NCBI GenBank assembly: GCA_022646745.1
Contig: CP060262.1
Location: forward strand, 1,440,001 to 1,472,000
Length of the DNA: 32,000 nucleotides
Reading direction: 5' to 3'
Origin: Planctomycetales bacterium
GTDB lineage: Bacteria; 4484-113; JAFGCY01
Shown here: positions 4,514-31,451 of the stretch, piece after piece
Numbering within the stretch: the stretch's first letter is position 1
Layout of the letters: every line of letters starts with the position of its first letter
Program-made: the position numbers and the translations under genes
The notes under the pieces: generated by a model
The model's input: the letters and a program-made list of their open reading frames with translations, nothing else
The model's database searches: none
What the model was told of the DNA's origin: nothing

Positions 4514-4533
4514 GCAAAAACTGACTGAAAACC

Positions 4534-5622: not shown

Positions 5623-5689
5623 TCGCCCATTGATTCACGAATAAGCGGTTTATTCAGTCAGGATCGGCCTTCCGTCTTTGCGCGCATTG

Positions 5690-5695: not shown

Positions 5696-5702
5696 CGCAG
5701 CC

Positions 5703-7583: not shown

Positions 7584-7613
7584 GCCTTCAAGGGCATCTG
7601 CTAACCTATCCGT

Positions 7614-7642
7614 CCGCCCGTCGTGCGCGCTGCGGCGGGCGG
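7614..7642 (+). terminator. GC-rich hairpin downstream of the peptidase gene (possible terminator, no U-tract)
   Basis: CCGCCCG (7614-7620) pairs with CGGGCGG (7636-7642) around a 15-nt loop. No T-run follows, so it is not a canonical intrinsic terminator. Confidence 0.2.
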
Positions 7643-7656
7643 CCACTGGAGCACAT

Positions 7657-7869
7657 ATGAGCGAACAGGACCACAAGGACCCGGACGGCGTCGAGCTCGG
7701 CGAGGACAGCCTCGAGGGCCAGCGCGCCGACATCGAACGCATCAAGGACTACTGCCAGAAGCTTGGCGAGGGCATCTCGAACGCCGCCGACCTGCTGTTG
7801 CAGATGCGCGAGCAGATCGCGGAAATGGACATCCGCCTGCGCAAGCTGGAGGCAGCGAAGGACGAGTAG
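7657..7869 (+). CDS. Hypothetical small acidic coiled-coil protein (70 aa)
   Basis: Codons are strongly G/C-ending throughout. The C-terminal half (LLLQMREQIAEMDIRLRKLEAAKDE) looks helical or coiled-coil. The overlapping ORF 7623..7910 is Arg/Gly/Pro-rich junk. Confidence 0.55.
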   Translation: MSEQDHKDPDGVELGEDSLEGQRADIERIKDYCQKLGEGISNAADLLLQMREQIAEMDIRLRKLEAAKDE

Positions 7870-7878
7870 GCCGCAGGC

Positions 7879-10218: not shown

Positions 10219-10295
10219 GCATAGATTCTACTGCAGCCCAGACTGGAATGCCAATCCAGACTTTGAGCACCCAGCAGCGCATACAATCCGCTGTG

Positions 10296-14400: not shown

Positions 14401-15092
14401 TCGCCCATGCGCTGTGGTGCAGCCGGTGAGGACTGGATCACCTGCTGGATGCGCTCCTGATCCAGCGGCACCGGCTCAGTTTCCACCGTCTGGCTGATGT
14501 CCAGGTAGAAGTCGTAGGTCACCTCGCGCACCAGGCCCTTGTTCTCGCTGAGCAGCTTCTGCATCAAGGCATCGAGCTGGCTGACATCCGCCAGGCCCGG
14601 CACCTCGTAAGCGGTGAAATTGACATCCCTGTAGAACACGCGGCCGAACTCACTGAGGCCGTAATGCTGGGCGAAGTTGTGACTGACGCGGCGGTAGAAG
14701 GGATGGTCCACCAGCGGGTGGTTGTCCGTCGCCCGCCTGAGGTCCGCCTGCGCCCCGCCGCCCATGTACTGCTGCTGCACCGCCGGGTCGGGCTGGTTCT
14801 CCCAGACGACCACGAGGCGGTTGGCGGCGAAGTCCTGTCCGGCCCGCGCCGTGCGCCGAGGCAGTTCCAGCTCGGCCTCCGGGTCGGCTGCATTGCGCAA
14901 TCCGGCGAGGTTGGCCGGCTCACCGGGCAGGGCCAGCATGCCGGGGTCATCCACGAGGCCGGTGCTGCCTGCATCGTTGCCGAACACCGGGGCACTGCCT
15001 GCATCCGGTTCAGCACTGAGCTGCTGCTGCGAGGCGCATGCGCCGATCAACAGCACAAACAGGATCATAGGAGTGAAGATGCTTCGTTTCAT
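11421..15092 (-). CDS. Large exported S8 subtilisin-family serine peptidase lipoprotein with C-terminal beta-sandwich domains and an IPT/TIG-like domain
   Basis: Catalytic triad motifs appear in D-H-S order: VVVAVVDTGVRYTHEDL, DHGHGTYCSGIVGAVGNNG, GTSFACPYVAGCAALLW, plus the oxyanion-Asn region VVVAAGNNNWG. There are two MAM or choice-of-anchor-J-like segments (SNDWLYAPVIDLTGFASASLEF...MWIDDVHI and LGWLYSPLIDLSATVRPRIRL...GWSLDDIEV). The C-terminal IPT/TIG-like segment is GYPGQTVVLSGDKFG...VYVTVLGHESN. The start is taken at ATG 15092 (MKRSIFTPMILFVLLIGACASQ, lipoprotein signal), not 15194. Confidence 0.9.
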   Translation of the reverse strand: MKRSIFTPMILFVLLIGACASQQQLSAEPDAGSAPVFGNDAGSTGLVDDPGMLALPGEPANLAGLRNAADPEAELELPRRTARAGQDFAANRLVVVWENQPDPAVQQQYMGGGAQADLRRATDNHPLVDHPFYRRVSHNFAQHYGLSEFGRVFYRDVNFTAYEVPGLADVSQLDALMQKLLSENKGLVREVTYDFYLDISQTVETEPVPLDQERIQQVIQSSPAAPQRMGELNRSTSAAPNDPMHLNLSGSDGGTWANWRIGAIDGQAWDSGVGSHDVVVAVVDTGVRYTHEDLADNAIEPAAEFPYNEPGILTDVINKDNDPFDDHGHGTYCSGIVGAVGNNGLGLAGANQQVSILPVKVLSGGGSGSETQVAEGMLLADYLGADIISMSLGGDFPDRIMQLAAKQCDSDGVLVVVAAGNNNWGGLFYPAYYPECLGVGATTLVNDSNDQDFSQVDGEIPTADRYDARANFSNYGSWVDIAAPGVQVRSTSNGSDTSYGASGAGTSFACPYVAGCAALLWAHMGPDSSNHEVRGMLQGSATVMDHVNNGANPRGFIDNDTNGTVRFVNVWEAIKLYDAGPYEAPVVSWASPLEGATVSGLTDLQLEITGGSGNILKVSFETPTRHLGTVIAESGGFWQLNWDSAFEFNGGQTITATVTDDVGHIISLPLHVSCDNAHIVPEWQEGFDGLADDTLPAGWSVLDGNAGTNNTIWGADNSDGGDATPSMHSSGSTANYAPNSNDWLYAPVIDLTGFASASLEFNYLHRMANDGGFLFITADDETYAGDGFFGGGNPDWDSYSFDLTPFCGAEVRIFWVIDCNGGNQAGGMWIDDVHITVPEGTPPTVSIDSPLAAASVDGIVDVQLTLSDDTVAVELIGLPVGAPPVLFDSIPDNDLENPTKTFTASWDSRQTGTGTVLLRARAYDDESDNGGLDDLAAEDSVVLSVVNPVAGPGWLEDFEDVVDLGGTDNGQPDGEWFRIGADPLRWRTGTQAPWRGLNHAYFGPDGGGDYGNDALGWLYSPLIDLSATVRPRIRLHHSLDVDASNGDRAVVYMVRYDGTEVLEANLFEQRNDSAGYQPLLFNLDGMSQQPFRLLFLFDSDGNSQAGNGWSLDDIEVLDADPFLLGLTQPRGYPGQTVVLSGDKFGVLQEDSFVSFRSEGGGSTLATVSAWSNTEISVIVPPDADSGDVYVTVLGHESNARHFSRLLDPTELTGIGQFSLSDGI

Positions 15093-15280
15093 TGCTTTTC
15101 CAGCCAGTCGGACAGGCATGCTTGCCTGCCCTTTACAATTCTTCCACAAATTACATGCTACTTCAAATTGAGATGAAACCGACCGCCGGTACACAATTAA
15201 TGATTGGTATGTGTCACCATAAAATCCGGTAAAATCAGGGTGTTTACCCGTATTCCACGCTGAAACCAGAGGAATTCCTC

Positions 15281-18103: not shown

Positions 18104-18197
18104 GCTGCAGACCGGACTGCGATGCAACTGCTTGTCCTGGTTTGTCCTGGGTTAGAATCTGTGCGGACGGAACCCGGTAAAGTGCGAGGACAAGCGC

Positions 18198-20291
18198 ATG
18201 TTCAGACAGCTCAGTGGCCTGCTGGCCGGAGCGATGCTGCTGCTGGCAGCCTGCTCCAGCGGAAGTGGCGGCCAGGTAAACCAGCCGACAGGCGACGCTG
18301 TCCTGCCGCAGCTTGAATCGCAGCTGCCGGCCATTTCTGCCCTGCCTGCCATGCAGCGCAGTACCAGCAATACGCCGGAAGCCTGCATCCGCACGGGAGC
18401 CGACATCTACAAGGTCTCGGCGAAGATGAATGCCGAGGTGACCGGTGACAAGCTCTCGATGAGCCCGACCTATGATCCGCAGGGCGACCCGCCGATGCAT
18501 GGACTGAGCTGGGGGATCTACGGTTTCAACATCGCAGACTACCAGCGCGGCACGGAGATCCAGGCAAAGTGGAATGGCACTGCGCCCGCCAGCTCCGGCA
18601 TCTACATCGGGGTCAGTGATTACTCCAGCGGACACTGGCAGTGGCGCCAGGGTACGGCGGACGGGACCGTGGACTTCCCGGGGCTGGCTGACTATTTCTC
18701 TGCCAACGGCGACCTGTATGTGGTGGTGCTGCTGGCAACGGAGGGCCAGTTCACCTTCGGCAGGCTGCGCCTCGGCGGCAACTTCCCGCCGGTGATTGAT
18801 TACACGATTGACAACGACAGCGCCCAGGGCAAGCTGACGGTCAACATCGATGCCTCCGCCAGCTACGATCCGGATGGCACTCTGACTTTCTTTGAATGGT
18901 CCGCCGAGGGTGGGCCGATCTTCGAGCCATCCGGTCCGTTCCTGTACTGGGAGTATGACCATGTCGGCGAGTACGACTGCATAGGCAGGGCGCATGACCT
19001 CGAAGGAGGGATGACTGAATTTGTCATCCCGATCAGCGTGACCCCCGTGCCTGGCAATGACCCGCCGGTGGCCGATATCTACTCTGAATCTGAAGTGGAA
19101 TCCGGCCTGGTGCCGCTTTCCGTCACGCTCAATGCACAGGACAGCACGGACCCGGAGAACGGTTTCATGACATTCCGCTGGGACATTGACGAGGACGGGT
19201 ACTTCGAGCAGTTCACCTTTGGCAGTCCGGTGTTCAAGGCTCTGTACATCGCAGCCGGCACCTACAACCCCAGCGTGATGGTGATTGATGAGTTCGGTGC
19301 CGTCGACACGGCCACGATGCAGATCGAGGTGCTGCCCGTGGAGGGCACGGAAGCTCCCGTTGCCAGACTGGAAGCCGTCTACTGGTATGACAACACTGCG
19401 GGAGAACGGTACTTCACCGCACAGGGATCCTACGACCCTGACAATGACATCGTGAAGTACGAATGGGACTTCGAGGGTGACGGCACGTTCGACGTTGATT
19501 CAGGGATCGATCCCGTGAATAACGTGACCTATTCCCAGGATGGCGGCGTGTTCAACGTCACTATGAGGGTCACTGACAGCGGCGGACGCAGTGACACGGC
19601 AACCTGCCCCGTAATGGTCACGCCATTCTCCGGCCAGCCGGAGCTCGAACCGAATGACAGCCCGGAGACGGCGATCAGCCTGGGCAGTTTTGGCAACGAG
19701 TGCGTGCGGGTGCGCGACTTTCCCGGCCAGCTCAAGTTCGCTGAGGATACAGAGGACTGGTATGTGGTCCATGCCGCACACAACGGCCAGCTGTGGTTCA
19801 ACCTGATCTTCACGCACAGTTTCATGGACATGGACATTGAGATGTACAGCCCTCTTGACCTGGTGAACCCGCTGTACTTCAGCTACTCGGATACCGACAA
19901 CGAGTTCATGTCCGTATTAATTACGGCACCGGGGGACTACTTCCTGCGGGTGTTCACCGACCAGGCAGGGGAGGCCGGGCAGGACAGCGGCTACAAGCTG
20001 GACTTCTGGGACCCCTCCAAGCCGGTGGCTTTCGTCACGGCCTCCGCAACGGTAGTGGAGACGGGGACCGAGGTTGTGCTCAACGCGGGCCGCAGCTATG
20101 ACCGTTACCTGGAGGGCCTGATCTACTTCTTTGACATGGATGGCGACGGGATCTTCGAGAGCGAGCCCGGCGGATGGCTCGGTACTGGCACCGTCAGCTG
20201 GGAAGGACCGCAGGAGCTCGGCGTCAAGGTACAGGACATGCTGGGAATGGAGTCAATCGCCACGGTGACAGTGACGGGCATCGCCCCCTGA
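18198..20291 (+). CDS. Paralog 2 of the lipoprotein family: N-domain, PKD x3, PPC, PKD (697 aa)
   Basis: Lipobox: MFRQLSGLLAGAMLLLAACSSGSGG. N-domain nt 18342-18779 (LSWGIYGFNI...YIGVSDYSSGHWQWRQG...RLRLGGN). PKD motif: DPDNDIVKYEWDFEGDGTFD. PPC: ELEPNDSPETAISL...TEDWYVVHA...GDYFLRVF. Confidence 0.9.
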   Translation: MFRQLSGLLAGAMLLLAACSSGSGGQVNQPTGDAVLPQLESQLPAISALPAMQRSTSNTPEACIRTGADIYKVSAKMNAEVTGDKLSMSPTYDPQGDPPMHGLSWGIYGFNIADYQRGTEIQAKWNGTAPASSGIYIGVSDYSSGHWQWRQGTADGTVDFPGLADYFSANGDLYVVVLLATEGQFTFGRLRLGGNFPPVIDYTIDNDSAQGKLTVNIDASASYDPDGTLTFFEWSAEGGPIFEPSGPFLYWEYDHVGEYDCIGRAHDLEGGMTEFVIPISVTPVPGNDPPVADIYSESEVESGLVPLSVTLNAQDSTDPENGFMTFRWDIDEDGYFEQFTFGSPVFKALYIAAGTYNPSVMVIDEFGAVDTATMQIEVLPVEGTEAPVARLEAVYWYDNTAGERYFTAQGSYDPDNDIVKYEWDFEGDGTFDVDSGIDPVNNVTYSQDGGVFNVTMRVTDSGGRSDTATCPVMVTPFSGQPELEPNDSPETAISLGSFGNECVRVRDFPGQLKFAEDTEDWYVVHAAHNGQLWFNLIFTHSFMDMDIEMYSPLDLVNPLYFSYSDTDNEFMSVLITAPGDYFLRVFTDQAGEAGQDSGYKLDFWDPSKPVAFVTASATVVETGTEVVLNAGRSYDRYLEGLIYFFDMDGDGIFESEPGGWLGTGTVSWEGPQELGVKVQDMLGMESIATVTVTGIAP

Positions 20292-20403
20292 ATGATCGCT
20301 GGCGGATTGCTTCCTGGGAAAGTCAATGATCGAGACTGATCGAGTAGAATTTTCCCAGCCTCCTGCACTGCCATAAGGAACCAGGCAGGTTCAAGGAATA
20401 AAG

Positions 20404-22518
20404 ATGAAAGCTCTTCTCGCCATCGCGTGCGCAGGCTGCCTGCTGCTCGCGGCTTCATGCAGCAGCCAGCCGGCTCAACCGGAGCAAGCGGCTGACCTGC
20501 CCGTTTCCGCGCAGGCTGAGGTTGTACAGCTCAGTCCCTCGCTGTCTGACGGGCTGCCGGGTCTGGACAGCCTGCCTCAGCAGCAGCGCAGCGCCAGCAA
20601 TGTCCCGGAGGACTTCCTGCGGGATGGATATCAGACTTATCAGCCTGATGCATTCGCCAATGCGAGCATTGTCGGGAACATGCTTGTGATGGTTGCGGAT
20701 TACGAGCCAGCGGCCGAGCCGCCGACACGTGAGCTGAGCTGGGCGATCTACGGTTTCAACATCACTGATTTCCAGCGCCAGCCGGAACTGCAGGTACTGT
20801 GGGAAGGCCCCAGGCCGGACGGAGCGCGCCACTACATCGGTGTCAGCGACTTCAGCAGCAATCGCTGGCAATGGTTCCAGGGCACGGATCAGGACATCAT
20901 TGATTTCGGTAGCCTTGACGGCTACTTCTCCGGGAATGGCGACATCTATTTCACCATCCTGGTCGCGGACAAGGGCAACTTCAATCTCAGCCGGCTGCGT
21001 CTGGGGGAGAACCTGCCGCCCGTGGCCAGCCTGATCCCGAACCAGACCAGTGGAACGGGCTCTCTGGAGGTCCAGTTCGACGCCTCGGGATGCCACGATC
21101 CGGACGGCAGCATTGCAGGCTACGAATGGTCAATGGAGGATCCGGACTACACGGATTTCCGGTACCCGGCCCCGGTGGTTTTCTGGACTTACGACCACGC
21201 GGGCGAGTACACCTGCACACTGCGCCTGACGGACAATGACGGAGCCACCGCCGAGCTCAGCATCCCGATTTCGGTCGCCCTGGTGGATGGCAACGCTGCG
21301 CCGCTTGCCTCGATCGTGCCTGACACCAGCGGAGGACCGGTCCCGCAGTGGATCAACTTCGACTGCAGCGGCAGCAGTGACACGGACGGCTCGATAGCCG
21401 GCTACCGTTTCGACTTCGACGGAGACGGGCATTTCGAGATTTTTGGCAGTGCCGTGCAGAAGTGGTTCTTCGCCGAACCGGGCAGCTATGAGATCTCCGT
21501 GATGGCGATTGACAACCAGGGCAGCTTCGGCACAGCCTCAACCACGGTGGTGATTGACCCGGTTGATGGTACTGAGCCGCCGACCATCGTCGTCAAGTCC
21601 GACTACAGCTTCAACTCACCGGGTGCCTTCAGGATAGACTGGAGCGAGAGCAGCGACCCCGACAATGACATCGTCTCGTTCGAGACGGACCTGGAGGGTG
21701 ATGGCATATTCGATTATTCTTTCGCCCCCGGTGAGGAATTCGTGGCGACCTATGCCCAGACAGGGCAGACTTTCAACGCGACATTCCGCGTGACGGACAG
21801 CGGCGGCCGGACAGACGTTGCCAGCATACCGCTGCGGATCGGGCCGAATTCCGGCCTGGCGGAAACTGAACCCAACGGTACCCCGGGCGAGGCCGAGGAG
21901 TTCACCGGCTTCATGAACTACTCCAAGGGGATCTGCAACTGGAAGGGCTCACTGGATGAGGGCGGCGGCGACAGCGCGGACTGGTACTCCTTCGAATCCG
22001 ACCGCAGCGGTCCAGTGGCGTTCGTCGCGGATTTCCTCCGCAGCGAGATAGACATGCGCCTGGACCTGTATTCCGCCGGCGACACCGACAACCCACTGGC
22101 CAGCTCCCACGGCATCGTGGACAAGGAAATCCTCAAGTTCGAGCTACCCGCCGCCGGCCATTACCTGATCCGTGTGAGCATAGATCCCTCAGCACTGGCG
22201 AAGGGCCCCGGTGACTACACATTCCGCTGCCGCAACTATGACGGCCCGCACGCCGCCCTGTCCGCTGATCCACTCTTTGGGTCGGTTCCATTTGACATTT
22301 CGCTGGATGCATCTGCCAGCACAGTTGAGATGGGCTACATCACTGAATACCAGTTTGATGTCGACGGTGACGGGATCTTTGAAGTGACCGGCCAGTTCCA
22401 GCCCACCTATGACACGCAGATCACAGTACCCGGTGCAATCGTCGTCAGCGTGCGCGTAATCGATGAGTGGGGCCTCGCGGATACAGACTTCGTCATAGTC
22501 ACTGCCTTGCCCATTTGA
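20404..22518 (+). CDS. Paralog 3 of the lipoprotein family: N-domain, PKD x3, PPC, PKD (704 aa)
   Basis: Lipobox: MKALLAIACAGCLLLAASCSSQP. N-domain nt 20572-21006 (LSWAIYGFNI...YIGVSDFSSNRWQWFQG...RLRLGEN). PPC: ETEPNGTPGEAEEF...SADWYSFES...GHYLIRVS. Confidence 0.9.
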   Translation: MKALLAIACAGCLLLAASCSSQPAQPEQAADLPVSAQAEVVQLSPSLSDGLPGLDSLPQQQRSASNVPEDFLRDGYQTYQPDAFANASIVGNMLVMVADYEPAAEPPTRELSWAIYGFNITDFQRQPELQVLWEGPRPDGARHYIGVSDFSSNRWQWFQGTDQDIIDFGSLDGYFSGNGDIYFTILVADKGNFNLSRLRLGENLPPVASLIPNQTSGTGSLEVQFDASGCHDPDGSIAGYEWSMEDPDYTDFRYPAPVVFWTYDHAGEYTCTLRLTDNDGATAELSIPISVALVDGNAAPLASIVPDTSGGPVPQWINFDCSGSSDTDGSIAGYRFDFDGDGHFEIFGSAVQKWFFAEPGSYEISVMAIDNQGSFGTASTTVVIDPVDGTEPPTIVVKSDYSFNSPGAFRIDWSESSDPDNDIVSFETDLEGDGIFDYSFAPGEEFVATYAQTGQTFNATFRVTDSGGRTDVASIPLRIGPNSGLAETEPNGTPGEAEEFTGFMNYSKGICNWKGSLDEGGGDSADWYSFESDRSGPVAFVADFLRSEIDMRLDLYSAGDTDNPLASSHGIVDKEILKFELPAAGHYLIRVSIDPSALAKGPGDYTFRCRNYDGPHAALSADPLFGSVPFDISLDASASTVEMGYITEYQFDVDGDGIFEVTGQFQPTYDTQITVPGAIVVSVRVIDEWGLADTDFVIVTALPI

Positions 22519-22640
22519 ACCATGCCAGGGGTAGCTGGGACCTGCTTGCCGCGAAGCTCAGTTTGGTGATTCTTTCAGCTAGAATTCTGTGCTGCCCCTC
22601 CAGCATGCTGGAGAGTATCCGGGCGCAGTGAGGAATAAAG

Positions 22641-24740
22641 ATGCGTGCTTCATTTGCCCTTCTGCTGGCAGGCTGCCTTTTCTGCCTGGCAGCCTGTTCA
22701 TCCGGCGCTGCCAACCTGCAGGAAAAGGCTGCCACGCCTGAGCGCCAGTCCGGTCCGGTTGAACTGCCGCAGGACCTGCTTGCCCAGCTTCCAGCCCCGG
22801 CCGAGCTGCCCGCCGTTGGGCGCAGCTTCAGTGATACACCGGCGGACTACATCCGCAAGGGTGCGGAGATCATCACGCCCGGCAGCCGCGAGAATGCGAT
22901 CGTGTTCGGGGACAGCCTGCTGATGGCCCCGGACTGGGACCCCGCCGCCAACCCGCCGAAGCTGGATGTGAGCTGGGGCATCTACGGTTACCACCTGCCG
23001 GGATTCGCAAGGGAGGCTCAGGTCGACCTGCAGTGGGGCGTGCGCCCGGACTCCGGCGAGTACTACGTCGGCATCACGGATTACGGCAGCGGCCGCTGGA
23101 AATGGCAGCTTGGCAATGACGATGACCACTTCGACTTCGGCTCGCTGGACGGCTATTTCTCGAACTTCGACGCGATCTACTGCTGCGTGTTGCTGACCGG
23201 CAGCGGCAGCTTCGAGCTGACCCGTGTGCGGCTCGGTGGCAACTTCGCCCCGACCGCCAGCTTCACCGTGGCCCAGGACAGCGGCCAGTACTTCTTCACC
23301 ACAGGGTTTGACGGCTCCGCCAGCTCCGACCTGGATGGCACGATCGCCGAGTACCACTGGTCATTCGAGGACCCAATCTACTTCACACCCGGTGACCTCG
23401 GGCCGACCCCCAGCCACGACTACGACCATGTCGGCACCTTCACCTGCACCCTGCGCGTGGTTGATAACGAAGGTGGCACCGGCGAAGCCACCGCCACGAT
23501 CAATGTGACCGGTGAACCGGGCAACCTGCCACCGATCGCGGACATCGTGGCCTTGCCGAACGGCGGTCCGCTGCCCCAGGCCATCAACTTTGACGCCTTC
23601 AACAGCATGGACCCGGATGGCGGCATCGTCAATTACCGCTGGGACCTTGACGACGACGGGTTCCATGAGCTGCAGACCCCGGTCCCCTTCGCCTACCGCG
23701 AATTCATCGAGGCTGGCACCTTCACCGTCGGGGTGATGGTGATCGATTTCTTCGGGGAAAGTGCCACGGCCACGACGGATGTCACGATCACTCCGATCAG
23801 CGGTGAGAACCCACCCACTGCTGAACTGAGCATCGACTACTACTGCCTGCAGAGCGGAATCATCCGTTACATCGACACGAGCGGCCTCGTGGACCCCGAC
23901 AATGACATCGTCAAGTACGAATGGGACTTCGAGGGTGACGGCACGTTTGACTATGACCTCGGCCTGAACCCCGGTGGTGACATCACCTACACGCTGCCCG
24001 GCGAATTCACGCCAACGGTGCGCATCACCGACAGTGGTGAGCGGGAGGCCACCGCCAGCCTGAAGGTGATCGTGTCAAACGGGGTGGACCCGCAGGAGAC
24101 TGAGCCCAACAATGCCGAGACGGAGGCGGACAGCCTCGGCGGTTTCCTCAACTACGCGAAGCATATCCGCGACTGGAGTGCTAGCGTCGGCGGCAGCGAC
24201 ACCGAGGACTGGTACGCGATCGATGCCGACCGGGCCACGACCGCCAGCTTCTGGGTGGACTTCAGTTCGGCGACGGTCGACCTTTCACTGGCTCTGTACC
24301 ATGAGTCAGACCTGGTCGTTCCGTTGATTGAATCGATTGACAACGTGGACCGTGAATACATCAACTTTGGCCTGCCGGCCGCCGGGCGCTACTACCTGAA
24401 GGTGTTCGTGCCCGGTTCCGCCATCGAGACCGGCCCGGGCAACTACAAGCTGACCTGCCTGGAGAACCATCCGCCCATCGCCGTGCTGACTGGATCACCG
24501 GACATTGGGTTTGCACCCTTGCTGGTAATGCTGGATGCCAGCCTGAGCTCGGACGATGAGGACGGGCTGTCGGTCATCTTTGACTATGACCTGGACGGTG
24601 ACGGCTTCTTCGAAACCACCTTTGAGAACAGCACGATCAATACGACCCTCGTCTCACCCGGGTCATACCCGCTTGCTGTGCGGGTAACGGATTCGCTCGG
24701 GGAAACTGACATCGCCTACAAGATAATCACCGTGAACTAG
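22641..24740 (+). CDS. Paralog 4 of the lipoprotein family: N-domain, PKD x3, PPC, PKD (699 aa)
   Basis: Lipobox: MRASFALLLAGCLFCLAACSSGAAN. N-domain nt 22806-23240 (VSWGIYGYHL...YVGITDYGSGRWKWQLG...RVRLGGN). PPC: ETEPNNAETEADSL...TEDWYAIDA...GRYYLKVF. Confidence 0.9.
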   Translation: MRASFALLLAGCLFCLAACSSGAANLQEKAATPERQSGPVELPQDLLAQLPAPAELPAVGRSFSDTPADYIRKGAEIITPGSRENAIVFGDSLLMAPDWDPAANPPKLDVSWGIYGYHLPGFAREAQVDLQWGVRPDSGEYYVGITDYGSGRWKWQLGNDDDHFDFGSLDGYFSNFDAIYCCVLLTGSGSFELTRVRLGGNFAPTASFTVAQDSGQYFFTTGFDGSASSDLDGTIAEYHWSFEDPIYFTPGDLGPTPSHDYDHVGTFTCTLRVVDNEGGTGEATATINVTGEPGNLPPIADIVALPNGGPLPQAINFDAFNSMDPDGGIVNYRWDLDDDGFHELQTPVPFAYREFIEAGTFTVGVMVIDFFGESATATTDVTITPISGENPPTAELSIDYYCLQSGIIRYIDTSGLVDPDNDIVKYEWDFEGDGTFDYDLGLNPGGDITYTLPGEFTPTVRITDSGEREATASLKVIVSNGVDPQETEPNNAETEADSLGGFLNYAKHIRDWSASVGGSDTEDWYAIDADRATTASFWVDFSSATVDLSLALYHESDLVVPLIESIDNVDREYINFGLPAAGRYYLKVFVPGSAIETGPGNYKLTCLENHPPIAVLTGSPDIGFAPLLVMLDASLSSDDEDGLSVIFDYDLDGDGFFETTFENSTINTTLVSPGSYPLAVRVTDSLGETDIAYKIITVN

Positions 24741-24793: not shown

Positions 24794-25192
24794 ATGAACA
24801 CCGTTGGACAGTACAACTGGGTGGCACTCTTCCTGCTGGGCGGGGCGGTGCTGATCGGGCTGGCATTCGCTTTCCTGAACCTGTGGCGTCCGCGGCGGCC
24901 GAACTTCCTCAAGCGCCTGAGCTATGAATCCGGCGCGCAGGCCACCGGTGACGCGCTGGTGCGCTTCAACATCCGCTTCTACATCCTCGCGATCGTGTTC
25001 CTCATGTTCGACGTGGACATCATGTTCATCTTTCCCTGGGCCACCGCCTTCCGGCTGCTGGTGTTCGGTAATGACGACATCACCTTCACGCCGATCGGGG
25101 CCGCCTCACTGGGTGAGATGTTCGTGTTCCTCGGCATCCTGCTCGTCGGCTGGGCCTATGCCTACCGCAAGGGAGCGCTGGAATGGGTCTGA
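24794..25192 (+). CDS. nuoA: NADH-quinone oxidoreductase subunit A homolog (ND3/NuoA family)
   Basis: Family hallmarks: SYESG, FNIRFYILAIVFLMFDVDIMFIFPWA, YRKGALEW. Three predicted TM segments. Overlaps the next gene by 10 nt. Confidence 0.9.
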   Translation: MNTVGQYNWVALFLLGGAVLIGLAFAFLNLWRPRRPNFLKRLSYESGAQATGDALVRFNIRFYILAIVFLMFDVDIMFIFPWATAFRLLVFGNDDITFTPIGAASLGEMFVFLGILLVGWAYAYRKGALEWV

Positions 25193-25635
25193 AGGACCTC
25201 ATCCGCGAGGCCAGTGCCCATTCCCTGTGGCCGCTGATGCTCGGACTGGACTATGCCACGCTGGAACTGTTCAGCGCGATCTCGCCGCGCTATGACATCG
25301 CGCGCTTCGGCTCTGAGGTGATGCGCCCCAGCCCGCGCCAGGTGGACCTTTTGATCGTGGCCGGCGTCGTCAACAACAAGATGGCCCCGGTGATCCGCCG
25401 GCTGCATGCCTCGATGGCCGACCCGGCCTTCGTGATGGCATTCGGCGCGGGGGCGATCAGCGGCGCGCCCTTCGACGGCAGCTATGCGGTGGACGGGGGA
25501 GTGGACCGCATCGTACCAGTGGACATCTATGTGCCGGGCGACCCGCCGCGGCCCGAGCAGCTGATCGATGGCATCATCGCCCTGCGCGAGCGCATCCTCT
25601 CGGGTGCGCTGGATGAGCGGTTTGCGTGGCGGTAG
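25183..25635 (+). CDS. nuoB: NuoB/PSST-family subunit lacking all four cysteine ligands of Fe-S cluster N2
   Basis: Family motifs are conserved: SLWP, RYDIARFGSEVMRPSPRQVDLLIVAG, NKMAPVIRRL, VPVDIYVPG-PPRPEQL. At the E. coli ligand columns, GLSCCYVE reads GLDYATLE (D23 Y24, nt 25249-25254), MGACA reads FGAGA (G90, nt 25450-25452) and PGCPP reads PGDPP (D120, nt 25540-25542). Confidence 0.9.
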   Translation: MGLKDLIREASAHSLWPLMLGLDYATLELFSAISPRYDIARFGSEVMRPSPRQVDLLIVAGVVNNKMAPVIRRLHASMADPAFVMAFGAGAISGAPFDGSYAVDGGVDRIVPVDIYVPGDPPRPEQLIDGIIALRERILSGALDERFAWR

Positions 25636-25654
25636 GATCGCATTACCATGAACC

Positions 25655-26452
25655 ATGAGTATCAAGGCCAGCTGCCCTTGTCAGGTCAGGGAATCACTCC
25701 CCTGGGATCCTGATCCTCCTGCAAGTGTCCGGGAGGAAACCCCATACTTCAAACTGCACAAGCTCATCATCCGCAGGGAAAGCTGGCAACGCGGAATCCT
25801 GCACATCTGCACCAGATGCAATGCCGACTGGTATCTCGATCATGCATCGGGATTTCTGCTCAGAATTCCGGCAGGCTGCCTGGATAAGGCCAGGTCCTGG
25901 GATGCCGGTATGGAGAAACCGGCGAAAGTGCTTGCGGAACTGCTGCTGAACATTGGCAGCGTTGGATTCGCGGCGTTTCAAAGGCGGATGAAGTGGCTGA
26001 TGTTCCCATGCTGTGTCAGGGATCATGCGGGCGTCTGGCATGAGAAGGCCTTTGTCATCCTGAGTGCCTCGATGCCCCTTCCCGAATGGCAAAAGGGAGA
26101 GTCTGCATTGTCGGATGCAGCGCATGTTGAGCAGTCAAGGTTTGCCCTGCCGCTGGATATCCGCAGGGAAAGCTACAATGCCATGGAGATTGCCATGGGC
26201 TTCAATCCGACTTCGATCCGGACGTCATCCGGCCGCTGTTTCAATCTCTGGCCAAACACGGACTTCATGGACAAGGACGGGATCATCGGATCTGAATGCA
26301 GCCTGGCAACAGATGTCGATCCGTTTCGCCTCAAGCTGCTTACAAGCAGCGAGCTGGGGCCGCGACCATGGCGGCGCAATGTCCGGAGGGTTGACTACCC
26401 GACTTTCCATGGAGAGCTGACGGAGGATTTTGAGGATCTTCTGTATTCATAG
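25655..26452 (+). CDS. Hypothetical protein with an N-terminal CxC...CxxC motif (265 aa), inserted inside the nuo operon
   Basis: Starts 19 nt after the nuoB stop. Cys7, Cys9, Cys52 and Cys55 (SCPC...ICTRCNADWY) could form a zinc-ribbon-like site. GC is lower (53% in the 25741-25800 sample). It uses AGG/AGA Arg codons and many A/T-ending codons, unlike flanking genes. I recognise no family. Confidence 0.5.
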   Translation: MSIKASCPCQVRESLPWDPDPPASVREETPYFKLHKLIIRRESWQRGILHICTRCNADWYLDHASGFLLRIPAGCLDKARSWDAGMEKPAKVLAELLLNIGSVGFAAFQRRMKWLMFPCCVRDHAGVWHEKAFVILSASMPLPEWQKGESALSDAAHVEQSRFALPLDIRRESYNAMEIAMGFNPTSIRTSSGRCFNLWPNTDFMDKDGIIGSECSLATDVDPFRLKLLTSSELGPRPWRRNVRRVDYPTFHGELTEDFEDLLYS

Positions 26453-26807
26453 ACTGGCTCGTCTCGGATTTCCCAGTGAATCAGTCAACCTGAAGAACAA
26501 GGGTCAGGGATACCGGAAGAACCGGCGCGGCCCAGCCGCGATTGGGAGGGGATGCAGCGAAGTCAGGGAAATGCGGGGACTGGAGCTGATCAGAAAACTC
26601 TGTGCGCTCGGTGGCTCTGTGTTGACAATTCTCCAGTTTGACTGGGCTGAGGCTAGCCTGCACTTGGTTGGCAATGCGGCTGGGGCGGAGCGATATTGGT
26701 GAACGCAGAGCCGCAGAGTCTGGCAATGAGTGTCGTCGGGCTCATTGCTTGCTCCGCATTGCTCATTGCAGAGGGGCTTTCCGCGTGGCTGCGCGCACGC
26801 GGCGGAG

Positions 26808-26853
26808 TGTGGCTCTTGAGAGCCACAGGGCCCTGTTGGTCTGCAGACCAACA
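26808..26853. repeat. Two adjacent perfect hairpins or palindromes in a non-coding stretch
   Basis: tgtggctc-ttga-gagccaca (26808-26827) has an 8-bp stem and 4-nt loop. tgttggtctgcagaccaaca (26834-26853) is a 20-nt perfect palindrome. Both lie 90-135 nt downstream of the stop of the minus-strand gene ending at 26944. No T-tract on either strand. Confidence 0.6.
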
Positions 26854-26943
26854 CACCATCACTCATTGCCTCGCGGCATGCTATCCCAGGCTCAGAGGGA
26901 CTGCGCCACAACTTCCAACAACCGGTCTCTGGAATCCTTGCAG

Positions 26944-27309
26944 CTACTTCTTCTTCGTCGGCTTGGCCGGCAGTGATGAGACGTAGTCGTAGGACTTCCG
27001 GAACCAGCTGCGCAGTGTGCGTGTGTTACCAAACAGTGCAGGCGGCACGGTGACATACTCCCGCTGGACATATCCGGGGATAGAGTGGTAGAGCCGGGTA
27101 CCGTACTTCTCGAGGAAGGCCTCACGCTCATCCTTCGCCAGCCGCAGGCCGATCTCGTTGAACTTCGAGATGCTGGAGTACATATTGCCGTTCAGTGAAG
27201 TGTAGGGAGCCGCCGCCCCCCTGGCCTCGACCCCCTCCACGCCCTCGATCATCTTCATGTAGGCCGCGAGCACTGCCGGGTCCACATCCGCAAATTTGTT
27301 CTTCGCCAT
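26944..27309 (-). CDS. Small hypothetical protein (121 aa from MAKNKF), possibly TfoX-N/YjbR-like
   Basis: Likely start is the ATG at the complement of 27307-27309 (MAKNKFADVDPAVLAAYMKMIEG...). The lysine-rich tail is LPAKPTKKK. Its resemblance to small TfoX-N-like proteins is from memory only. It lies opposite to the nuo genes it interrupts. Confidence 0.55.
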   Translation of the reverse strand: MAKNKFADVDPAVLAAYMKMIEGVEGVEARGAAAPYTSLNGNMYSSISKFNEIGLRLAKDEREAFLEKYGTRLYHSIPGYVQREYVTVPPALFGNTRTLRSWFRKSYDYVSSLPAKPTKKK

Positions 27310-27492
27310 GCCTGCCTCCGGGCTGATTCTAGCTTTTGCTGCAGGGCCTTGGAACAGCATTGGAAGCTGCCCCATCGGCTAGAATTACAGGAACCTTCTG
27401 CATTTGATATGTATAAGGTAACGCTGTGGGGCTTTTGATCGTTTATATCTGTATGCCGATTGCCGTAATCCAGCCAGGATGGGGAGGACTTG

Positions 27493-28074
27493 GTGCTCCC
27501 TGATGAGCTTGCCGGTCAGATCCGCGAGGACTGCGGTGATGTGCTGCTGCTGGACCCCGCCCGCGGCTGGGCGATCCTGACGGACAGCGGCCAGCTGCAG
27601 CTGGTCTGCCGCCAGCTGAAGAACATCGGCTTCATCCGTGCGCTTAACATGACCGCCAACCACCTCGGCGGGCCGGACTTCCACCTCTACCTGACGCTCA
27701 GGCACGGCAGGCGGCATGATGTCAGTCTCACACTGAAATGGAAATTCACCCTGCTGGAGGGCAATGCCCCGGCAGCGGACAGGGGTGGGGAGGATACTGA
27801 AGCAGCGCCGGCCTATGCCGGGCAGAGCGTGCACCCCAGCCTGAGCCTGATCTGGCGGGCGACGGAGCTGATGGAGCGCGAGATCTTCGAGTTCTTCGGC
27901 ATCCCCTTCGCTGGCAACCCGAACCTCATCGGGCTGATCCTCGACCCGCAGCTGCAGGGCTTCCCGCTCAGGCGGGAATTCCGGGCTGCCTCACATGAGA
28001 ACTACGCAGAGAACGTGCTGAAGCAGCGCGCCGACGCGGCAATGCGGGAGGTGCTTGATGACGCGCAGCTCTGA
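27493..28074 (+). CDS. nuoC: NuoC/30-kDa-family subunit homolog
   Basis: Conserved C-terminal core: WRATELMEREIFEFFGIPFAGNPNLIGLIL...GFPLRREF (canonical W..A.W.ERE..D.FGI.F.GHP.L.R.L...HPLRKD). GGGGAGGA (27481-27488) precedes TTG 27490 and GTG 27493. The exact start is uncertain. Confidence 0.8.
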   Translation: MLPDELAGQIREDCGDVLLLDPARGWAILTDSGQLQLVCRQLKNIGFIRALNMTANHLGGPDFHLYLTLRHGRRHDVSLTLKWKFTLLEGNAPAADRGGEDTEAAPAYAGQSVHPSLSLIWRATELMEREIFEFFGIPFAGNPNLIGLILDPQLQGFPLRREFRAASHENYAENVLKQRADAAMREVLDDAQL

Positions 28075-29209
28075 TCGCCGTGTTGAGATCCGCCGCGACC
28101 CGCTGCTGACGGAGAAGCTGGTCTACTCCGTCGGTCCGCAGCACCCAAGCCTGCCGAGCCCGCTGGAGCTGCGGGTACAGGCGGACGGCGAGCTGATCGA
28201 GCGCATCACGCCGGAGGTCGGCTTCATGCATCGCGGCGTGGAGCAGCTGGTGACCCAGCGCAACTACGCCCAGGCGGCTGGGCTGTTGTCCCGCTGCGAA
28301 TGGCTGGCTGGCAGCAACGCCGACTGGCTGGTGGCGGATGCCATCGAGCGCATCGAGGGGATCACTATCCCGGCCCGCGCGCAGTGGCTGCGCACCCTTG
28401 TGCTGGAGCTGAGCCGGATCGGCAACCACCTGTTCTGGTTTGGCAACCTCGGTCTCGAGGCCGGCGCTTATACCCCGATCTTCATCTCGCTGCGCGAGCG
28501 CGAGATGCTGCTCGACCTGCTGGAGATGCTCAGCGGGCACCGCCACCACCATGGCTGGATCGTGCCTGGCGGCGTGCGCACTGCCCCGCCGGAGGACTTC
28601 AGCGGCCATGTGCGGGCATTTTGCCTGTGGTTCCAGGGCCGGCTGGATGAATACGAGGACTTCTTCTCTGACAACGCAATCTGGATCAACCGCAGCGAGC
28701 TGATCGGCACGCTCGAGCCCGAGTTTGCCTTCGAGCATGGCGCCACCGGGCCGGTGCTGCGTGGCAGCGGGATCGCGCATGACCTGCGCCGCGACCAGCC
28801 CTATGCGATGTACGGCGAGCTGGACCTGCATGTGCCGACCGGAGAGTATGGCGATGTGCTGGACCGCTACCGCGTGCGCTTCGTCGAGATGCGCGAGAGC
28901 CTGCGCATCATCGAGCACTGCCTGGCTTACATTGACAACGGCGAGCTGCGCAATGCGGAAGTCAACCCGGACTTCGCGCAGATGGCGGTCTCGCGCGGCG
29001 AGGTCTACACGGCGGTCGAGAGCCCGCGCGGCGAGCTCGGCCTGACGCTCGTCAGCGACGGCACGAACCGCCCAAACCGCATGCACCTGCGTGCGCCGAG
29101 CCTGTACCACCTGTTCCTGCTGGACGAGCTGTGCCGCGGTTACCTGCTGGCGGACCTGTTCGTGATCTACGGCAGCCTCGACATCATGATCGGGGAGGTC
29201 GACAAGTGA
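28058..29209 (+). CDS. nuoD: NuoD/49-kDa-family subunit lacking the quinone-binding His and Tyr, with no NiFe Cys motifs
   Basis: Family motifs: VGPQHPS, GFMHRGVEQL, LELSRIGNHL, YGDVLDRYRVRFVEMRESLRII, ESPRGELG, LRAPSLYHL, GSLDIMIGEVDK. Against Thermus Nqo4, GPQHPSTHGV reads GPQHPSLPSP (P33 at the His38 column, nt 28154-28156) and RMDY reads RCEW (W82 at the Tyr87 column, nt 28301-28303). It overlaps nuoC by 17 nt. Confidence 0.88.
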   Translation: MTRSSDRRVEIRRDPLLTEKLVYSVGPQHPSLPSPLELRVQADGELIERITPEVGFMHRGVEQLVTQRNYAQAAGLLSRCEWLAGSNADWLVADAIERIEGITIPARAQWLRTLVLELSRIGNHLFWFGNLGLEAGAYTPIFISLREREMLLDLLEMLSGHRHHHGWIVPGGVRTAPPEDFSGHVRAFCLWFQGRLDEYEDFFSDNAIWINRSELIGTLEPEFAFEHGATGPVLRGSGIAHDLRRDQPYAMYGELDLHVPTGEYGDVLDRYRVRFVEMRESLRIIEHCLAYIDNGELRNAEVNPDFAQMAVSRGEVYTAVESPRGELGLTLVSDGTNRPNRMHLRAPSLYHLFLLDELCRGYLLADLFVIYGSLDIMIGEVDK

Positions 29210-30984
29210 TGCTCCCGATGCTGGCAATCCTGCAGCAGCGCTACGACATGGACGAGGCCCGCACCGTCTGGGAGGCGATGCGCGCCTGGCTCAATACCGA
29301 GCCGCTGCCCGGCCTGCGCTTCAGCCCGGAGGTTGCCAACGGCATCATGCTGGTGACGGCGCTCCTGCTGATCTTCCTCCTGGAGCTGATGATCACCATC
29401 GGCCTGCAGGTCTGGGAGCGCCGCCTGATGGCACGCATGCAGGGCCGCCGCGGCCCGCAGGAGTACGGCGAGGTCACCCCGCAGCGCTTCCGGCGGATCT
29501 TCATGCAGATCGGCGTGCTGATCGGCCTGCCCGCGCTGCTGTACGGCATCAACTACTGGACCGGCGGCACCGCCGGCTGGCAACAGTTCGGTGGCTGGAT
29601 CATCCTGTTCTTCGCCGTGGGCATGATGGGGCTGATCAACCGGCTGATGATCCTGCCGGCGCTCGGCCGGATGCAGGCCGCGCAGACCTCCGTCTGGCGC
29701 TTTCTGGCAACGCTGCTCTCGCTTTTGGCCTGGCCATCCCTCGCAGCCTGCGGCGGCATGCTCGTCGCTCTCCTGCTGGGCTTCATCCCGAAGGCGCACA
29801 TCCCCTTCCTGCCGCAGCTCACCGTACTGTGCACCGTGGTCGCCTTCGTGCTCTACATGAGCTACATGTTGCGCTACTACTGGCGCCAGGGCTTCTACGA
29901 CACGATCAAGATCTTCTTCAAGGAAGACACCGTCCCGCTCAGCGCTGACAAGCTCTTGTACCTGATCGCGCCGATCCTCGTCTACCTGCCGGCGCTGCTG
30001 AGCTGGGTGGTGATCCCGTTTGGCGTGGCGGCGGTCGACGGGCAGATCATCTACTACATGATCCAGGACCTGAACGTCGGCCTGCTTCTGATCATCGCCG
30101 ACTTCGCGATGTTCCTCGTGGCCGTGATCATGTCCGGCTACGCCTCCAACAACAAATATGCACTGGTCGGCGCAATGCGCGAGGCCGCCATGCTGCTGAC
30201 CTACGAGATCCCGATGCTGATGAGCCTCCTGTGCGTTGCCATCTTCGCCGGTTCGCTGAACCTGACGGAGATCGTGCAGCGCCAGACGATGACCTGGGGC
30301 ATCCTGCCGCTGTTCCCGGCCTTCATCATCTACTTCGTCGTCAGCCTGGCTGAGACCAACCGCCCGCCGTTTGACCTGCCGGAAGCGCAGAACGAGCTTT
30401 TGGGAGGTTACCTCGTGGAGTACAGCGGGATGCGCTTCGCGCTGTTCTACGTCGCCGAGTATTCGAACGTGTTCATCGTCAGCGCGATCATGACCGTCTG
30501 CTTCTTCGGCGGCTGGAAGGGCCCGATGTTCCTCGGCCCCGACGGGCTGTGGCTGACGAGCCTGTTCTGGTTCCTGCTGAAGACCTATGCCGTGTGCTTC
30601 TTCTTCATCTGGGCGCGTTCCACGATGCCGCGCATCCGCGTGGACCAGATCATGTTCTTCTCCTGGAAGTTCCTGCTGCCGGCCAGCGTGGTCGTGATGG
30701 CGGCCACGGCGCTCGGCGTCGTCAACCGCCATCCCTGGTTCAGCGCGAACCAGATCGCAGTGTCAGACGTTGACGTGACCGCTCTGCAGCGCGTCACCCA
30801 GTTCCAGACATTGACAACGGCCGAGGCACTGGCGGTGATGACAGTCCCCGAGAAGGCCTTCTTCTGGGGCTACAACGTGCTGTGCCTGTTCTTCGGACTG
30901 TTCATCCTGATGATGGCCTGGCGCATCCTGTTCGTGGCGCGCCGCCATCCGCAGCCCCGCCGGGAGGTGAGCTGGACCGGATGA
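29209..30984 (+). CDS. nuoH: Expanded NuoH/ND1-family membrane subunit (591 aa against about 325-350 typical)
   Basis: The core is conserved: ERRLMARMQGRRGPQ, IKIFFKEDTVPLSADKLLYLIAP, SGYASNNKYALVGAMREAAMLLTYEI, AETNRPPFDLPEAQNELLGGYLVEYSGMRFALFYVAEYSNV, MPRIRVDQIMFFSWKFLLP. The start ATG at 29209 shares its A with the nuoD stop (TGATG). There is an extra ~43-aa N-terminus, a ~140-aa hydrophobic insertion (aa 85-227, nt 29461-29889) and a ~80-aa C-terminal extension with one more TM helix. Confidence 0.88.
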   Translation: MLPMLAILQQRYDMDEARTVWEAMRAWLNTEPLPGLRFSPEVANGIMLVTALLLIFLLELMITIGLQVWERRLMARMQGRRGPQEYGEVTPQRFRRIFMQIGVLIGLPALLYGINYWTGGTAGWQQFGGWIILFFAVGMMGLINRLMILPALGRMQAAQTSVWRFLATLLSLLAWPSLAACGGMLVALLLGFIPKAHIPFLPQLTVLCTVVAFVLYMSYMLRYYWRQGFYDTIKIFFKEDTVPLSADKLLYLIAPILVYLPALLSWVVIPFGVAAVDGQIIYYMIQDLNVGLLLIIADFAMFLVAVIMSGYASNNKYALVGAMREAAMLLTYEIPMLMSLLCVAIFAGSLNLTEIVQRQTMTWGILPLFPAFIIYFVVSLAETNRPPFDLPEAQNELLGGYLVEYSGMRFALFYVAEYSNVFIVSAIMTVCFFGGWKGPMFLGPDGLWLTSLFWFLLKTYAVCFFFIWARSTMPRIRVDQIMFFSWKFLLPASVVVMAATALGVVNRHPWFSANQIAVSDVDVTALQRVTQFQTLTTAEALAVMTVPEKAFFWGYNVLCLFFGLFILMMAWRILFVARRHPQPRREVSWTG

Positions 30985-31451
30985 GGATGCTGTCAACGAG
31001 CCAGAACCTGCTGCACATCCTCGGTGAGCTGCTGCTCGTGGCCGCCGGGGCCTGGGGCCTGTACCTGCGCATCGTGCTCGGCATCGCGCCGGTGCTGACG
31101 ACGCAGTGGTTCGGTCCGCTGGCCCTGCTGGCGATCGGCCTGCTGCTGGCCGTGCTGCCGCTCACCCCGGCCCGCAATGCGGCCTGGATCAACCCCTGGT
31201 TCAGGCAGCGTCCGGGAGTCGCTTCACTGCTGTGGAGCTTCGCGGCCTGCGGCTGCCTGTATTCGCTGTGGCTGCAGTACGAGCTGCAGTTCACACTCAG
31301 GCCAGTGCTGCTCTTGGCGCCAGGCTTCCTTTACTGGTTCGTGGTGACGGCGCCGGGGCACCATGCCCAGCTGCGCAACATTGCCGCAGCCGGGGCGCAG
31401 GAGGCAGTTGCCAGCGAAGGACAGTCGGTGGAGGAGGTGCAGCGTGCCTGA
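30981..31451 (+). CDS. Hypothetical polytopic membrane protein (156 aa) at the position normally held by nuoI
   Basis: ATGA overlap with the nuoH stop (30981-30984). About four hydrophobic helices (LLHILGELLLVAAGAWGLYLRIVLGIAPVL, GPLALLAIGLLLAVLPL, SLLWSFAACGCLYSLWL, VLLLAPGFLYWFVVTAP). No CxxCxxCxxxCP ferredoxin motifs. GC3 is high. Confidence 0.65.
   Translation: MRMLSTSQNLLHILGELLLVAAGAWGLYLRIVLGIAPVLTTQWFGPLALLAIGLLLAVLPLTPARNAAWINPWFRQRPGVASLLWSFAACGCLYSLWLQYELQFTLRPVLLLAPGFLYWFVVTAPGHHAQLRNIAAAGAQEAVASEGQSVEEVQRA

Follow-up and report, generated by a model that had tools for sequence, protein, structure and literature searches.

The window analysed here is a stretch of 32,000 nucleotides from a Planctomycetales bacterium (assembly GCA_022646745.1, contig CP060262.1, positions 1,440,001 to 1,472,000 of the forward strand). 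It carries a nuoD homologue (28058-29209, + strand; 383 amino acids by translation, assigned by Pfam, PDB and alignment) in an operon that, judged by sequence, encodes a derivative of respiratory complex I free of redox cofactors. In the sequences compared below, the quinone head-group site of NuoD, the NiFe motifs, the ligands of the iron-sulfur clusters N2, N6a and N6b, and operon-encoded NuoE, NuoF and NuoG are demonstrably all missing. The first-pass annotation of this DNA had singled out the NuoD pocket; the loss is a phenomenon of the whole complex and not a peculiarity of one subunit. The complex is very probably redox-inactive, reducing neither quinone nor any other acceptor. A search of the open-access literature brought up no earlier account of a complex I-type assembly lacking every Fe-S and cofactor ligand. 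What is new is a redox-cofactor-free complex I derivative, whose origin is documented by a sister lineage and by an intermediate.

The protein is a NuoD. It matches the Pfam family Complex1_49kDa (PF00346) with E=2.5e-80 (269.9 bits, cutoff 24) and passes the NCBIfam equivalog model NF004739 (385.5 bits, cutoff 360), while its score against TIGR01962 (354.8 bits) is under the cutoff of 459.35. Its top PDB matches are 49-kDa subunits of complex I (E=5.5e-83). Thermus Nqo4 (2fug_4) is matched at E=9.9e-78, residues 15-304 of the query lying on 20-307 of the chain, so that Thermus numbers are offset by +5. Large subunits of hydrogenases are far weaker matches (MbhL 4.7e-44, HycE 2.3e-31), and canonical NuoDs are 40-47% identical to the protein of the window. 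The C-terminus, GSLDIMIGEVDK, aligns with the canonical GSxDIVxGEVDR. A search by regular expression found neither R.CG.C nor DPC..C, the NiFe motifs, in the protein. Its Cys80 aligns with Thermus M85 and not with the hydrogenase ligand column 86 (column as given in PMC4758237). Identification as a hydrogenase large subunit is rejected on the missing NiFe motifs, the NuoD-type C-terminus, the phylogeny and the weak PDB matches to hydrogenases.

The columns of the quinone pocket were placed by alignment to solved 49-kDa subunits and to canonical NuoDs. The beta1-beta2 loop (residues 26-38; 28133-28171, +) reads GPQHPSLPSPLEL and aligns on GPQHPSTHGVLRL, the canonical form being GPQHP(S/A)(T/A)HGV(L/F)R(L/I). 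Here T37 of Thermus has become Leu32, V40 has become Pro35, and the column of the quinone-site histidine His38 holds Pro33. Further on, SRCEW (residues 78-82; 28289-28303, +) aligns on the canonical DRxDY, the Thermus residues D83, R84, M85, D86 and Y87 being S, R, C, E and W, so that the tyrosine column (Tyr87) holds Trp82. There are no indels between the two columns. Glu134 (28457-28459, +) stands in the column of Asp139, which in Thermus is the partner of His38; the role of this aspartate has been described (PMC4758237; PMC11627005). No substitute His/Tyr pair is visible near the pocket in the NuoD sequence, and the only histidine of the beta1-beta2 loop is His29, which is universally conserved. 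The annotation had read the two columns as Pro33 and Trp82, had noted the lack of both hydrogenase motifs beside a NuoD-like C-terminus, and had concluded that the pocket fits neither of the two known solutions, His/Tyr for quinone or Cys for NiFe. The residue-level alignments and the motif search bear out these observations, a replacement pair supplied from neighbouring positions is not visible in the sequence, and the conclusion gains support from the fixation of the loss in a whole clade.

This fixation was seen when NuoD homologues were collected from 5.8 billion proteins. About 40 NuoD clusters are 55-96% identical to the protein of the window, after which identity drops to 47% or less. 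Both His and Tyr are absent from all 39 NuoDs of this clade (the window and 38 full-length clusters), and both are kept in all 79 non-clade sequences of the same alignment (77 matches, the NuoD of locus L085 and that of E. coli), a pattern that is not due to chance. The Tyr87 column is Trp in every one of the 39. The His38 column is P in 17, V in 10, A and T in 4 each, I in 2, and C and S in 1 each, and is never His; because it varies, it is not a recruited catalytic residue. Thirteen signature substitutions distinguish clade NuoD from canonical NuoD, and six of them lie in the head-group pocket in addition to the variable His38 column. In Thermus numbering the pocket changes are T37 to L, H38 to variable, V40 to P, D83 to S, D86 to E, Y87 to W and D139 to E. 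The last is conservative: 97% of the clade has Glu134, where 96% of canonical sequences have Asp. Cys80, Glu81 and Glu134 are each at least 90% conserved in the clade, and clade and canonical NuoD have 65 conserved positions in common, among them Arg79 (Thermus R84). The change is a targeted remodelling of the active site and not diffuse decay. A sequencing or assembly artefact is rejected, as four contigs carry the exact NuoD and independent assemblies (ENA, NCBI, JGI and Logan) contain close relatives of it.

An AlphaFold2 (AF2) model of NuoD alone has a predicted local distance difference test score (pLDDT) of 78.8 and a predicted template modelling score (pTM) of 0.81. In Foldseek comparison it superimposes on 49-kDa subunits with template modelling scores of 0.84-0.86. 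Residues 29-35 of the beta1-beta2 loop have pLDDT below 50.

The neighbouring nuoB homologue (25183-25635, +; Pfam Oxidored_q6) aligns to Thermus Nqo6 and does not contain a single cysteine in the whole protein. In place of the canonical GLACCAIE, GxCAxSGG and PGCPP it has GLDYATLE (25243-25266, +), GAGAISGA (25444-25467, +) and PGDPP (25534-25548, +). In all seven clade loci examined, C63, C64, C129 and C158 of E. coli NuoB are replaced by Tyr, Ala, Gly and Asp, with Asp at A62. The signature substitutions of NuoB cluster around the N2 ligands, and the Asp/Tyr/Asp set is invariant. In an exhaustive HMMER scan with the cysteine-less NuoB over 1.84 billion representatives, 147 of the best 150 matches keep all four N2 cysteines. 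The remaining three are P0121, a clade member, and P0124, both without all four, and one N-terminally truncated sequence. That the NuoD pocket fits the adjoining Cys-less NuoB, as had been proposed, is supported by the absence of N2 ligands throughout the clade loci and, in addition, by a NuoI homologue without ligands.

This NuoI homologue, here called Y or NuoI', begins at 31441 and is truncated by the window end at 32000 (+), which leaves its N-terminal part; the full gene is available at L001:7939-8934 or L003:13384-14382, and the window fragment was confirmed as the same protein as Y of L003. Y is a membrane-anchored protein of about 330 amino acids in the place where nuoI is expected, and it has no match in Pfam or NCBIfam. 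BLASTP aligns it to NuoI of the sister lineage (L085) with E=2e-16; the 266 aligned residues cover the membrane domain and a YPxxxxxxPxxxRG linker as far as the first Cys motif. BLASTP also links Y to NuoI of locus L088. A profile of six Cys-less Y sequences compared by hhalign with a canonical NuoI profile gives 89.8% probability (E=1.8e-6) over the N-terminal 46 columns. In the full-length alignment all eight ligands of the NuoI clusters N6a and N6b are replaced, for example CISCKACERICP against EALRIIAADGSGAI, and the soluble domain holds 0-1 Cys among clade members, none in a ligand column. A profile of the Cys-less NuoI' has no significant match among PDB sequences, which is expected since the cysteines are gone. 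From BLASTP, hhalign, gene position and full-length alignment, Y is identified as a membrane-anchored NuoI that has lost its cysteine ligands.

The operon order is nuoA-B-C-D-H-X-I'-J-K-L-M, eleven genes, where X is a further membrane subunit. Seven loci share this order, their NuoDs being 57-100% identical to that of the window; the operon of the window was completed from identical and related contigs. Three of these loci are from GTDB species representatives (metagenome-assembled genomes, or MAGs, UBP7 HKST-UBA01, AC1.30 and Zod_Metabat.1143). None of the clade operons inspected contains nuoE, nuoF, nuoG, a Cys-bearing nuoI or another electron-input module. Antiporter-like subunits are limited to one NuoL-like and one NuoM-like protein, compared with L, M and N in canonical complex I. 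Besides nuoB and nuoD, the window holds nuoA (24794-25192, +; 132 amino acids, Pfam Oxidored_q4, E=1e-27) and nuoC (27490-28074, +; 194 amino acids, Pfam Complex1_30kDa, E=9e-16), the latter overlapping the nuoD start.

The nearest non-clade NuoDs (P0042-P0050) are 45-46% identical to that of the window, have His and Tyr, and come from operons of the L085 type. The operon of L085 (8326-18404) has ten genes, A-B-C-D-H-I-J-K-L-M, without nuoEFG and with only L and M as antiporter-like subunits. Its NuoI (359 amino acids) begins with a membrane domain of several helices and continues with a normal ferredoxin domain that has two CxxCxxCxxxCP motifs. This sister lineage keeps all ligands: GPQHPSTHGV and DY in NuoD, GLACCAIE, GSCATSGG and PGCPP in NuoB, and both NuoI clusters. 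It shares with the clade the NuoI extended by transmembrane (TM) helices, a loop insertion and N-terminal extension of NuoK, an extra C-terminal helix of NuoH, the restriction to L and M, and an LLTE-like motif at the N-terminus of NuoD; in A, B, D, H, J and K the two are 44-58% identical. The sister lineage has neither the NuoH loop insertion nor X, and the clade has both. No published description of an L085-type complex was found.

An intermediate is found in locus L088, whose operon (9606-19314; A-B-C-D-H-Y-J-K-L-M) contains P0124. Its NuoB has Glu, Asp, Gly and Ser at the four N2 ligand positions, and in its NuoD His is changed to Trp and Tyr to Ile. Its NuoI retains exactly four Cys, fit for one [4Fe-4S] cluster and made up of the CxxCxxC of motif 2 and the CP of motif 1. 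In a neighbour-joining tree, support is 100/100 for the clade and 89/100 for the clade with L088, with the sister lineage next at 63/100; clade NuoD nests within NuoD, beside a sister of canonical type. This suggests a stepwise loss of cofactors, with all kept in the sister, one NuoI cluster in L088 and none in the main clade, though long-branch effects are possible. The clade complex descends from a compact type of complex I with a membrane-anchored NuoI. Upstream of the L088 operon there is an iron-dependent repressor of the DtxR/IdeR type with FeoA, MgtC and PaaA/B/C/D-like genes. A link between iron availability and the L088 complex is conceivable.

The membrane arm has kept its transport machinery. 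Transport residues were compared residue by residue with E. coli. NuoK of the clade keeps E36 and E72, NuoJ keeps Y59, and NuoA keeps D79, its E81 being Asp as in the sister lineage. NuoL keeps E144, D178, K229, H254, H338, K342, K399 and D/E400, and NuoM keeps E144, K234, H241, K265, H322, H348 and E407. The nuoH homologue (29209-30984, +; 591 amino acids, Pfam NADHdh, E=8e-97), whose start overlaps the nuoD stop (TGATG), retains E36 and E157 together with most of the acidic loop between TM5 and TM6, with EAQNEL for EAESEL and YLVEY for FHTEY. Apart from these NuoH substitutions, the charged membrane-arm residues known from mutagenesis align as intact. Two features of the arm are specific to the clade. 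In NuoH an insertion between TM1 and TM2 (residues 84-222; 29458-29874, +) brings extra hydrophobic helices and replaces GPNRVGPxGLLQ; its length ranges from about 30 to 170 amino acids among members, and it is absent from the sister lineage and E. coli. In canonical complex I this TM1-TM2 loop borders the quinone entrance. The other feature is X (30981-31451, +; 156 amino acids), a membrane subunit of about four helices, the first of which bears an invariant intramembrane Glu16; several Trp and Pro residues are invariant as well. X has no match in Pfam or NCBIfam, distant members are 32-34% identical, and its AF2 model (pLDDT 52) is too poor for use. X has the same place in the operons of L003, L004, L005 (13471-13959), L083 (12865-13302) and L086 (5764-6186).

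Ratios of nonsynonymous to synonymous substitution rates (dN/dS) were computed between two members that are 90% identical in NuoD. They are lowest for NuoA (0.06), followed by B and D (0.15 each), K (0.20), M (0.22), H (0.25), C (0.26), J (0.32), Y (0.34), L (0.39) and X (0.47). Since NuoA, B and D are the most constrained (0.06-0.15), the operon is not decaying. When distant members are compared, conservation is highest in A, B, D, H and K (60-80% identity), and L is 43-48% identical. Start/stop overlaps are maintained at nuoA/B, C/D, D/H, H/X and X/Y. The purifying dN/dS, the conservation and these overlaps indicate that the operon is functional. By these values the most constrained part of the operon is the junction around the former quinone chamber.

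Several known systems resemble the complex in part. With NuoD/Nqo4/49-kDa (NDUFS2) of complex I it shares the fold, PF00346, the C-terminus and the setting in a nuo operon; it differs by the changes at His38, Tyr87, Asp139, Thr37 and Val40, by cluster-free NuoB and NuoI, and by having no N-module. Mrp antiporters (Mnh/Sha/Pha) are complex I superfamily members that are cofactor-free too. In them, as in the clade, antiporter-like subunits of the MrpA/MrpD type (NuoL-like and NuoM/N-like) carry the conserved Glu/Lys set, and NuoK/J-like parts are present. Mrp is encoded by seven genes, mrpABCDEFG, and has no known homologues of NuoH, NuoA, NuoB, NuoC, NuoD and NuoI. The clade, in contrast, retains NuoH, A, B, C, D and I', as its most conserved parts, and has no MrpE/F/G-like Pfam match. 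An Mrp operon is rejected on these grounds, NuoH and homologues of the Q-module being present and the MrpE/F/G families not detected.

The nearest published concept is that of the Ech-hydrogenase-related (Ehr) complexes, reportedly treated by Coppi in 2005 and Marreiros in 2013, with Geobacter GSU0739-45 as an example. Ehr complexes are Ech-related, with an Ech-like subunit set and a large subunit that branches among those of hydrogenases, whereas the clade has a bona fide NuoD and a Nuo-like set. Their catalytic-site ligands are missing and their function is unknown (PMC7894505). The likeness is that of a superfamily member whose large subunit has no catalytic ligands. Identification as an Ehr complex is rejected, since the large subunit nests within NuoD and the subunit set is Nuo-like, the Ehr traits being taken from the literature. 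NuoD or FpoD without His38 and/or Tyr87 occurs in Sulfolobus, Nautiliales, Desulfurobacteriales and Fpo, where the clusters are kept (PMC4758237). MbsL of the sulfane reductase MBS (6u8y_L) matches the NuoD of the window at E=3.9e-61 and belongs with these variants as a case in which a large subunit has naturally lost its canonical quinone or NiFe ligands. These NuoD variants and MBS stay redox enzymes with other acceptors, whereas in the clade the whole chain of clusters is gone.

Without an exergonic reaction, the complex would be left with ion exchange or conduction down gradients, or with conformational work driven by a gradient. On balance we lean towards a redox-inactive complex I derivative that serves as a gradient-driven ion translocator, its former quinone chamber remodelled. 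That the complex is specifically a gradient-driven ion exchanger is inferred, and we would put it at even chances or slightly less. In the simplest arrangement it would act as a redox-independent, Mrp-like cation/proton exchanger powered by an ion gradient. NuoL and NuoM would conduct protons, and the E-channel (NuoH, A, J and K, perhaps with X and its buried Glu) would carry the counter-flux. NuoB, C, D and I' would stay on as a cap or gate on the cytoplasmic side of the remodelled chamber, where bulky and acidic residues have taken over from the catalytic ones; its lining may consist of Leu32, Pro35, Glu81, Trp82 and Glu134 of NuoD and of the Asp/Tyr/Asp of NuoB at or beside the old N2 site. 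The inserted helical hairpin of NuoH may reshape the former quinone entrance. In NuoD the conserved residues Arg79 and His164, which normally flank N2, could pair with the new NuoB aspartates and fill the space vacated by the cluster. In broader terms, this may be a natural, cofactor-free complex I with its whole Q-module, in which the chamber is an ion or ligand gate or a new non-redox site controlling the antiporter-like subunits, a formulation that falls somewhat short of an even chance.

Several points weigh against ion exchange. Sequence cannot give transport activity, ion specificity or direction, and the state of the cavity rests on aligned positions only. Pfam matches to MrpE, F or G were not found, and X matches no known family. 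The strongest constraint is on NuoB, NuoD and NuoA and not on the antiporter-like subunits, and it could equally well reflect a new specific ligand or chemistry in the old chamber. This last point leads to the main rival, in which remodelling has turned the pocket into a new active or binding site without redox function and the ion arm is coupled to another reaction or to a membrane-derived ligand. Gradient-driven extraction or transport of lipids or isoprenoids, or a metal- or acid-base-catalysed reaction, might by analogy be examples, and cyanobacterial NDH-1, which bears a CO2-hydrating Cup module, is a comparable case. Such a site would agree with NuoB, NuoD and NuoA being the most constrained genes, with fixed replacements (Trp82, Cys80, Glu81, Glu134 and the NuoB Asp/Tyr/Asp) that exceed the needs of a passive plug, and with an entrance in NuoH that has been rebuilt rather than deleted. 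Yet no catalytic motif or metal-binding constellation is recognisable, the His38 column varies freely, no accessory enzyme gene is conserved beside the operon, and analogy is its sole basis. We regard it as unlikely, although it is the strongest of the alternatives.

The others are less probable. The complex might still be an oxidoreductase with hidden cofactors or partners, such as a redox protein acting in trans, a cofactor on X or on the membrane domain of NuoI', or Trp/Tyr hopping. New membrane parts are present (X, the TM domain of NuoI' and the extra NuoH helices), and NuoDs of Sulfolobus, Nautiliales and Fpo without His38 and/or Tyr87 do belong to Fe-S complexes (PMC4758237). However, no more than one Cys is left in NuoB or in the soluble domain of NuoI' (0-1 in each), and none is in a ligand column. 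X and Y have no conserved His pair or CxxCH, the operons encode no electron-input subunits, and the stretch of about 12 Å from N2 to the pocket holds no cofactor; we consider this improbable. A sensor or transducer of membrane potential or an ion gradient, with a peripheral arm that signals to or moves a cytoplasmic partner and with net ion transport not being its purpose, is marginally less probable again. It would explain why a peripheral arm useless for redox is kept under strong constraint, and the operon spacer of one strain contains a hybrid histidine kinase. This kinase is strain-specific and unconserved, no partner gene is conserved, and two complete antiporter-like subunits with all key residues are more than a sensor needs. 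A decaying, functionless relic with pseudogenes in the making is largely refuted and hardly credible. Catalytic residues have been lost, and some members have unrelated insertions (the nuoB-nuoC spacer; the toxin-antitoxin pair of L084). Against this, the eleven open reading frames (ORFs) are intact in independent assemblies with NuoD 57-97% identical to that of the window, dN/dS is 0.06-0.47 in every gene, overlapping start and stop codons are kept, transport residues are retained, and the substitutions are fixed and not drifting. A pseudogene or relic is rejected on dN/dS, intact ORFs and clade-wide conservation.

A central open question of complex I is how events are transmitted from the chemistry of the quinone chamber to the proton channels. 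The complex described here would isolate the conformational and electrostatic part of this coupling, with chamber subunits, E-channel and antiporters under selection and redox chemistry absent. In the standard account an Mrp-like antiporter and a hydrogenase module gave rise to complex I. The lineage would run the opposite way, from a respiratory enzyme back toward an antiporter-like machine with the peripheral arm kept. If this is true, the complex would be a present-day equivalent of the intermediates postulated to link Mrp antiporters with complex I, and nature's own test of how the quinone chamber drives proton pumping. There is also a practical consequence for annotation. NuoB passes the NCBIfam models NF005012 and TIGR01957 above their curated cutoffs despite the missing ligands, database names of clade NuoD read "NADH-quinone oxidoreductase subunit D", and Pfam and NCBIfam name B, D and H likewise. 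Because the models accept cofactor-less NuoD and NuoB, the Prokaryotic Genome Annotation Pipeline (PGAP) will name them as functional NADH-quinone oxidoreductase subunits, and metabolic reconstructions (e.g., of the UBP7 MAG HKST-UBA01) will wrongly infer a respiratory complex I. The present assignment corrects the metabolic annotation of this uncultured lineage.

In the window the operon is split between nuoB and nuoC by a variable spacer of 1.85 kb (25636-27489, no strand assigned) that lies outside the complex. The spacer holds orf180 (25910-26452, +; no family) and a weakly TfoX_N-like gene (26944-27375, -; by Pfam). It is absent in L005 and L083. In L003 the spacer (5309-9432) adds a hybrid histidine kinase/receiver of 617 amino acids, and in L004 it is 6.7 kb long (2733-9447) with different genes. 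In this sub-lineage the operon is therefore broken up by the island into two or more transcription units. L084 has a nucleotidyltransferase/HepT-like toxin-antitoxin pair (13956-14569) between nuoH and the NuoI-like gene and an additional membrane ORF of 178 amino acids between nuoD and nuoH. Small ORFs are also found between nuoH and X in L005 and L086. These small ORFs have no detectable homology to each other or to X, and those of L005, L086 and L084 are treated as lineage-specific. In L086 a 228-amino-acid ORF before nuoB was considered as NuoA and rejected, as it is not recognisable as such.

Directly upstream of nuoA the window has four tandem paralogous lipoproteins (15281-24740, +; 940, 697, 704 and 699 amino acids), all with a lipobox of the 'LLAACSS' type. 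The three that were scanned, all except the 704-amino-acid copy (20404-22518), have multiple PKD/PKD_4 domains, and two of the three also have PPC. A large PKD protein follows the operon in L085 too. Farther upstream (1095-15194) are genes for a MocR/GntR-aminotransferase regulator, an M28 peptidase with PA and PDZ domains, an ankyrin-repeat lipoprotein, a Reg_prop beta-propeller protein and an S8 subtilase of 1257 amino acids, and these suggest a proteolytic heterotroph rich in surface proteins.

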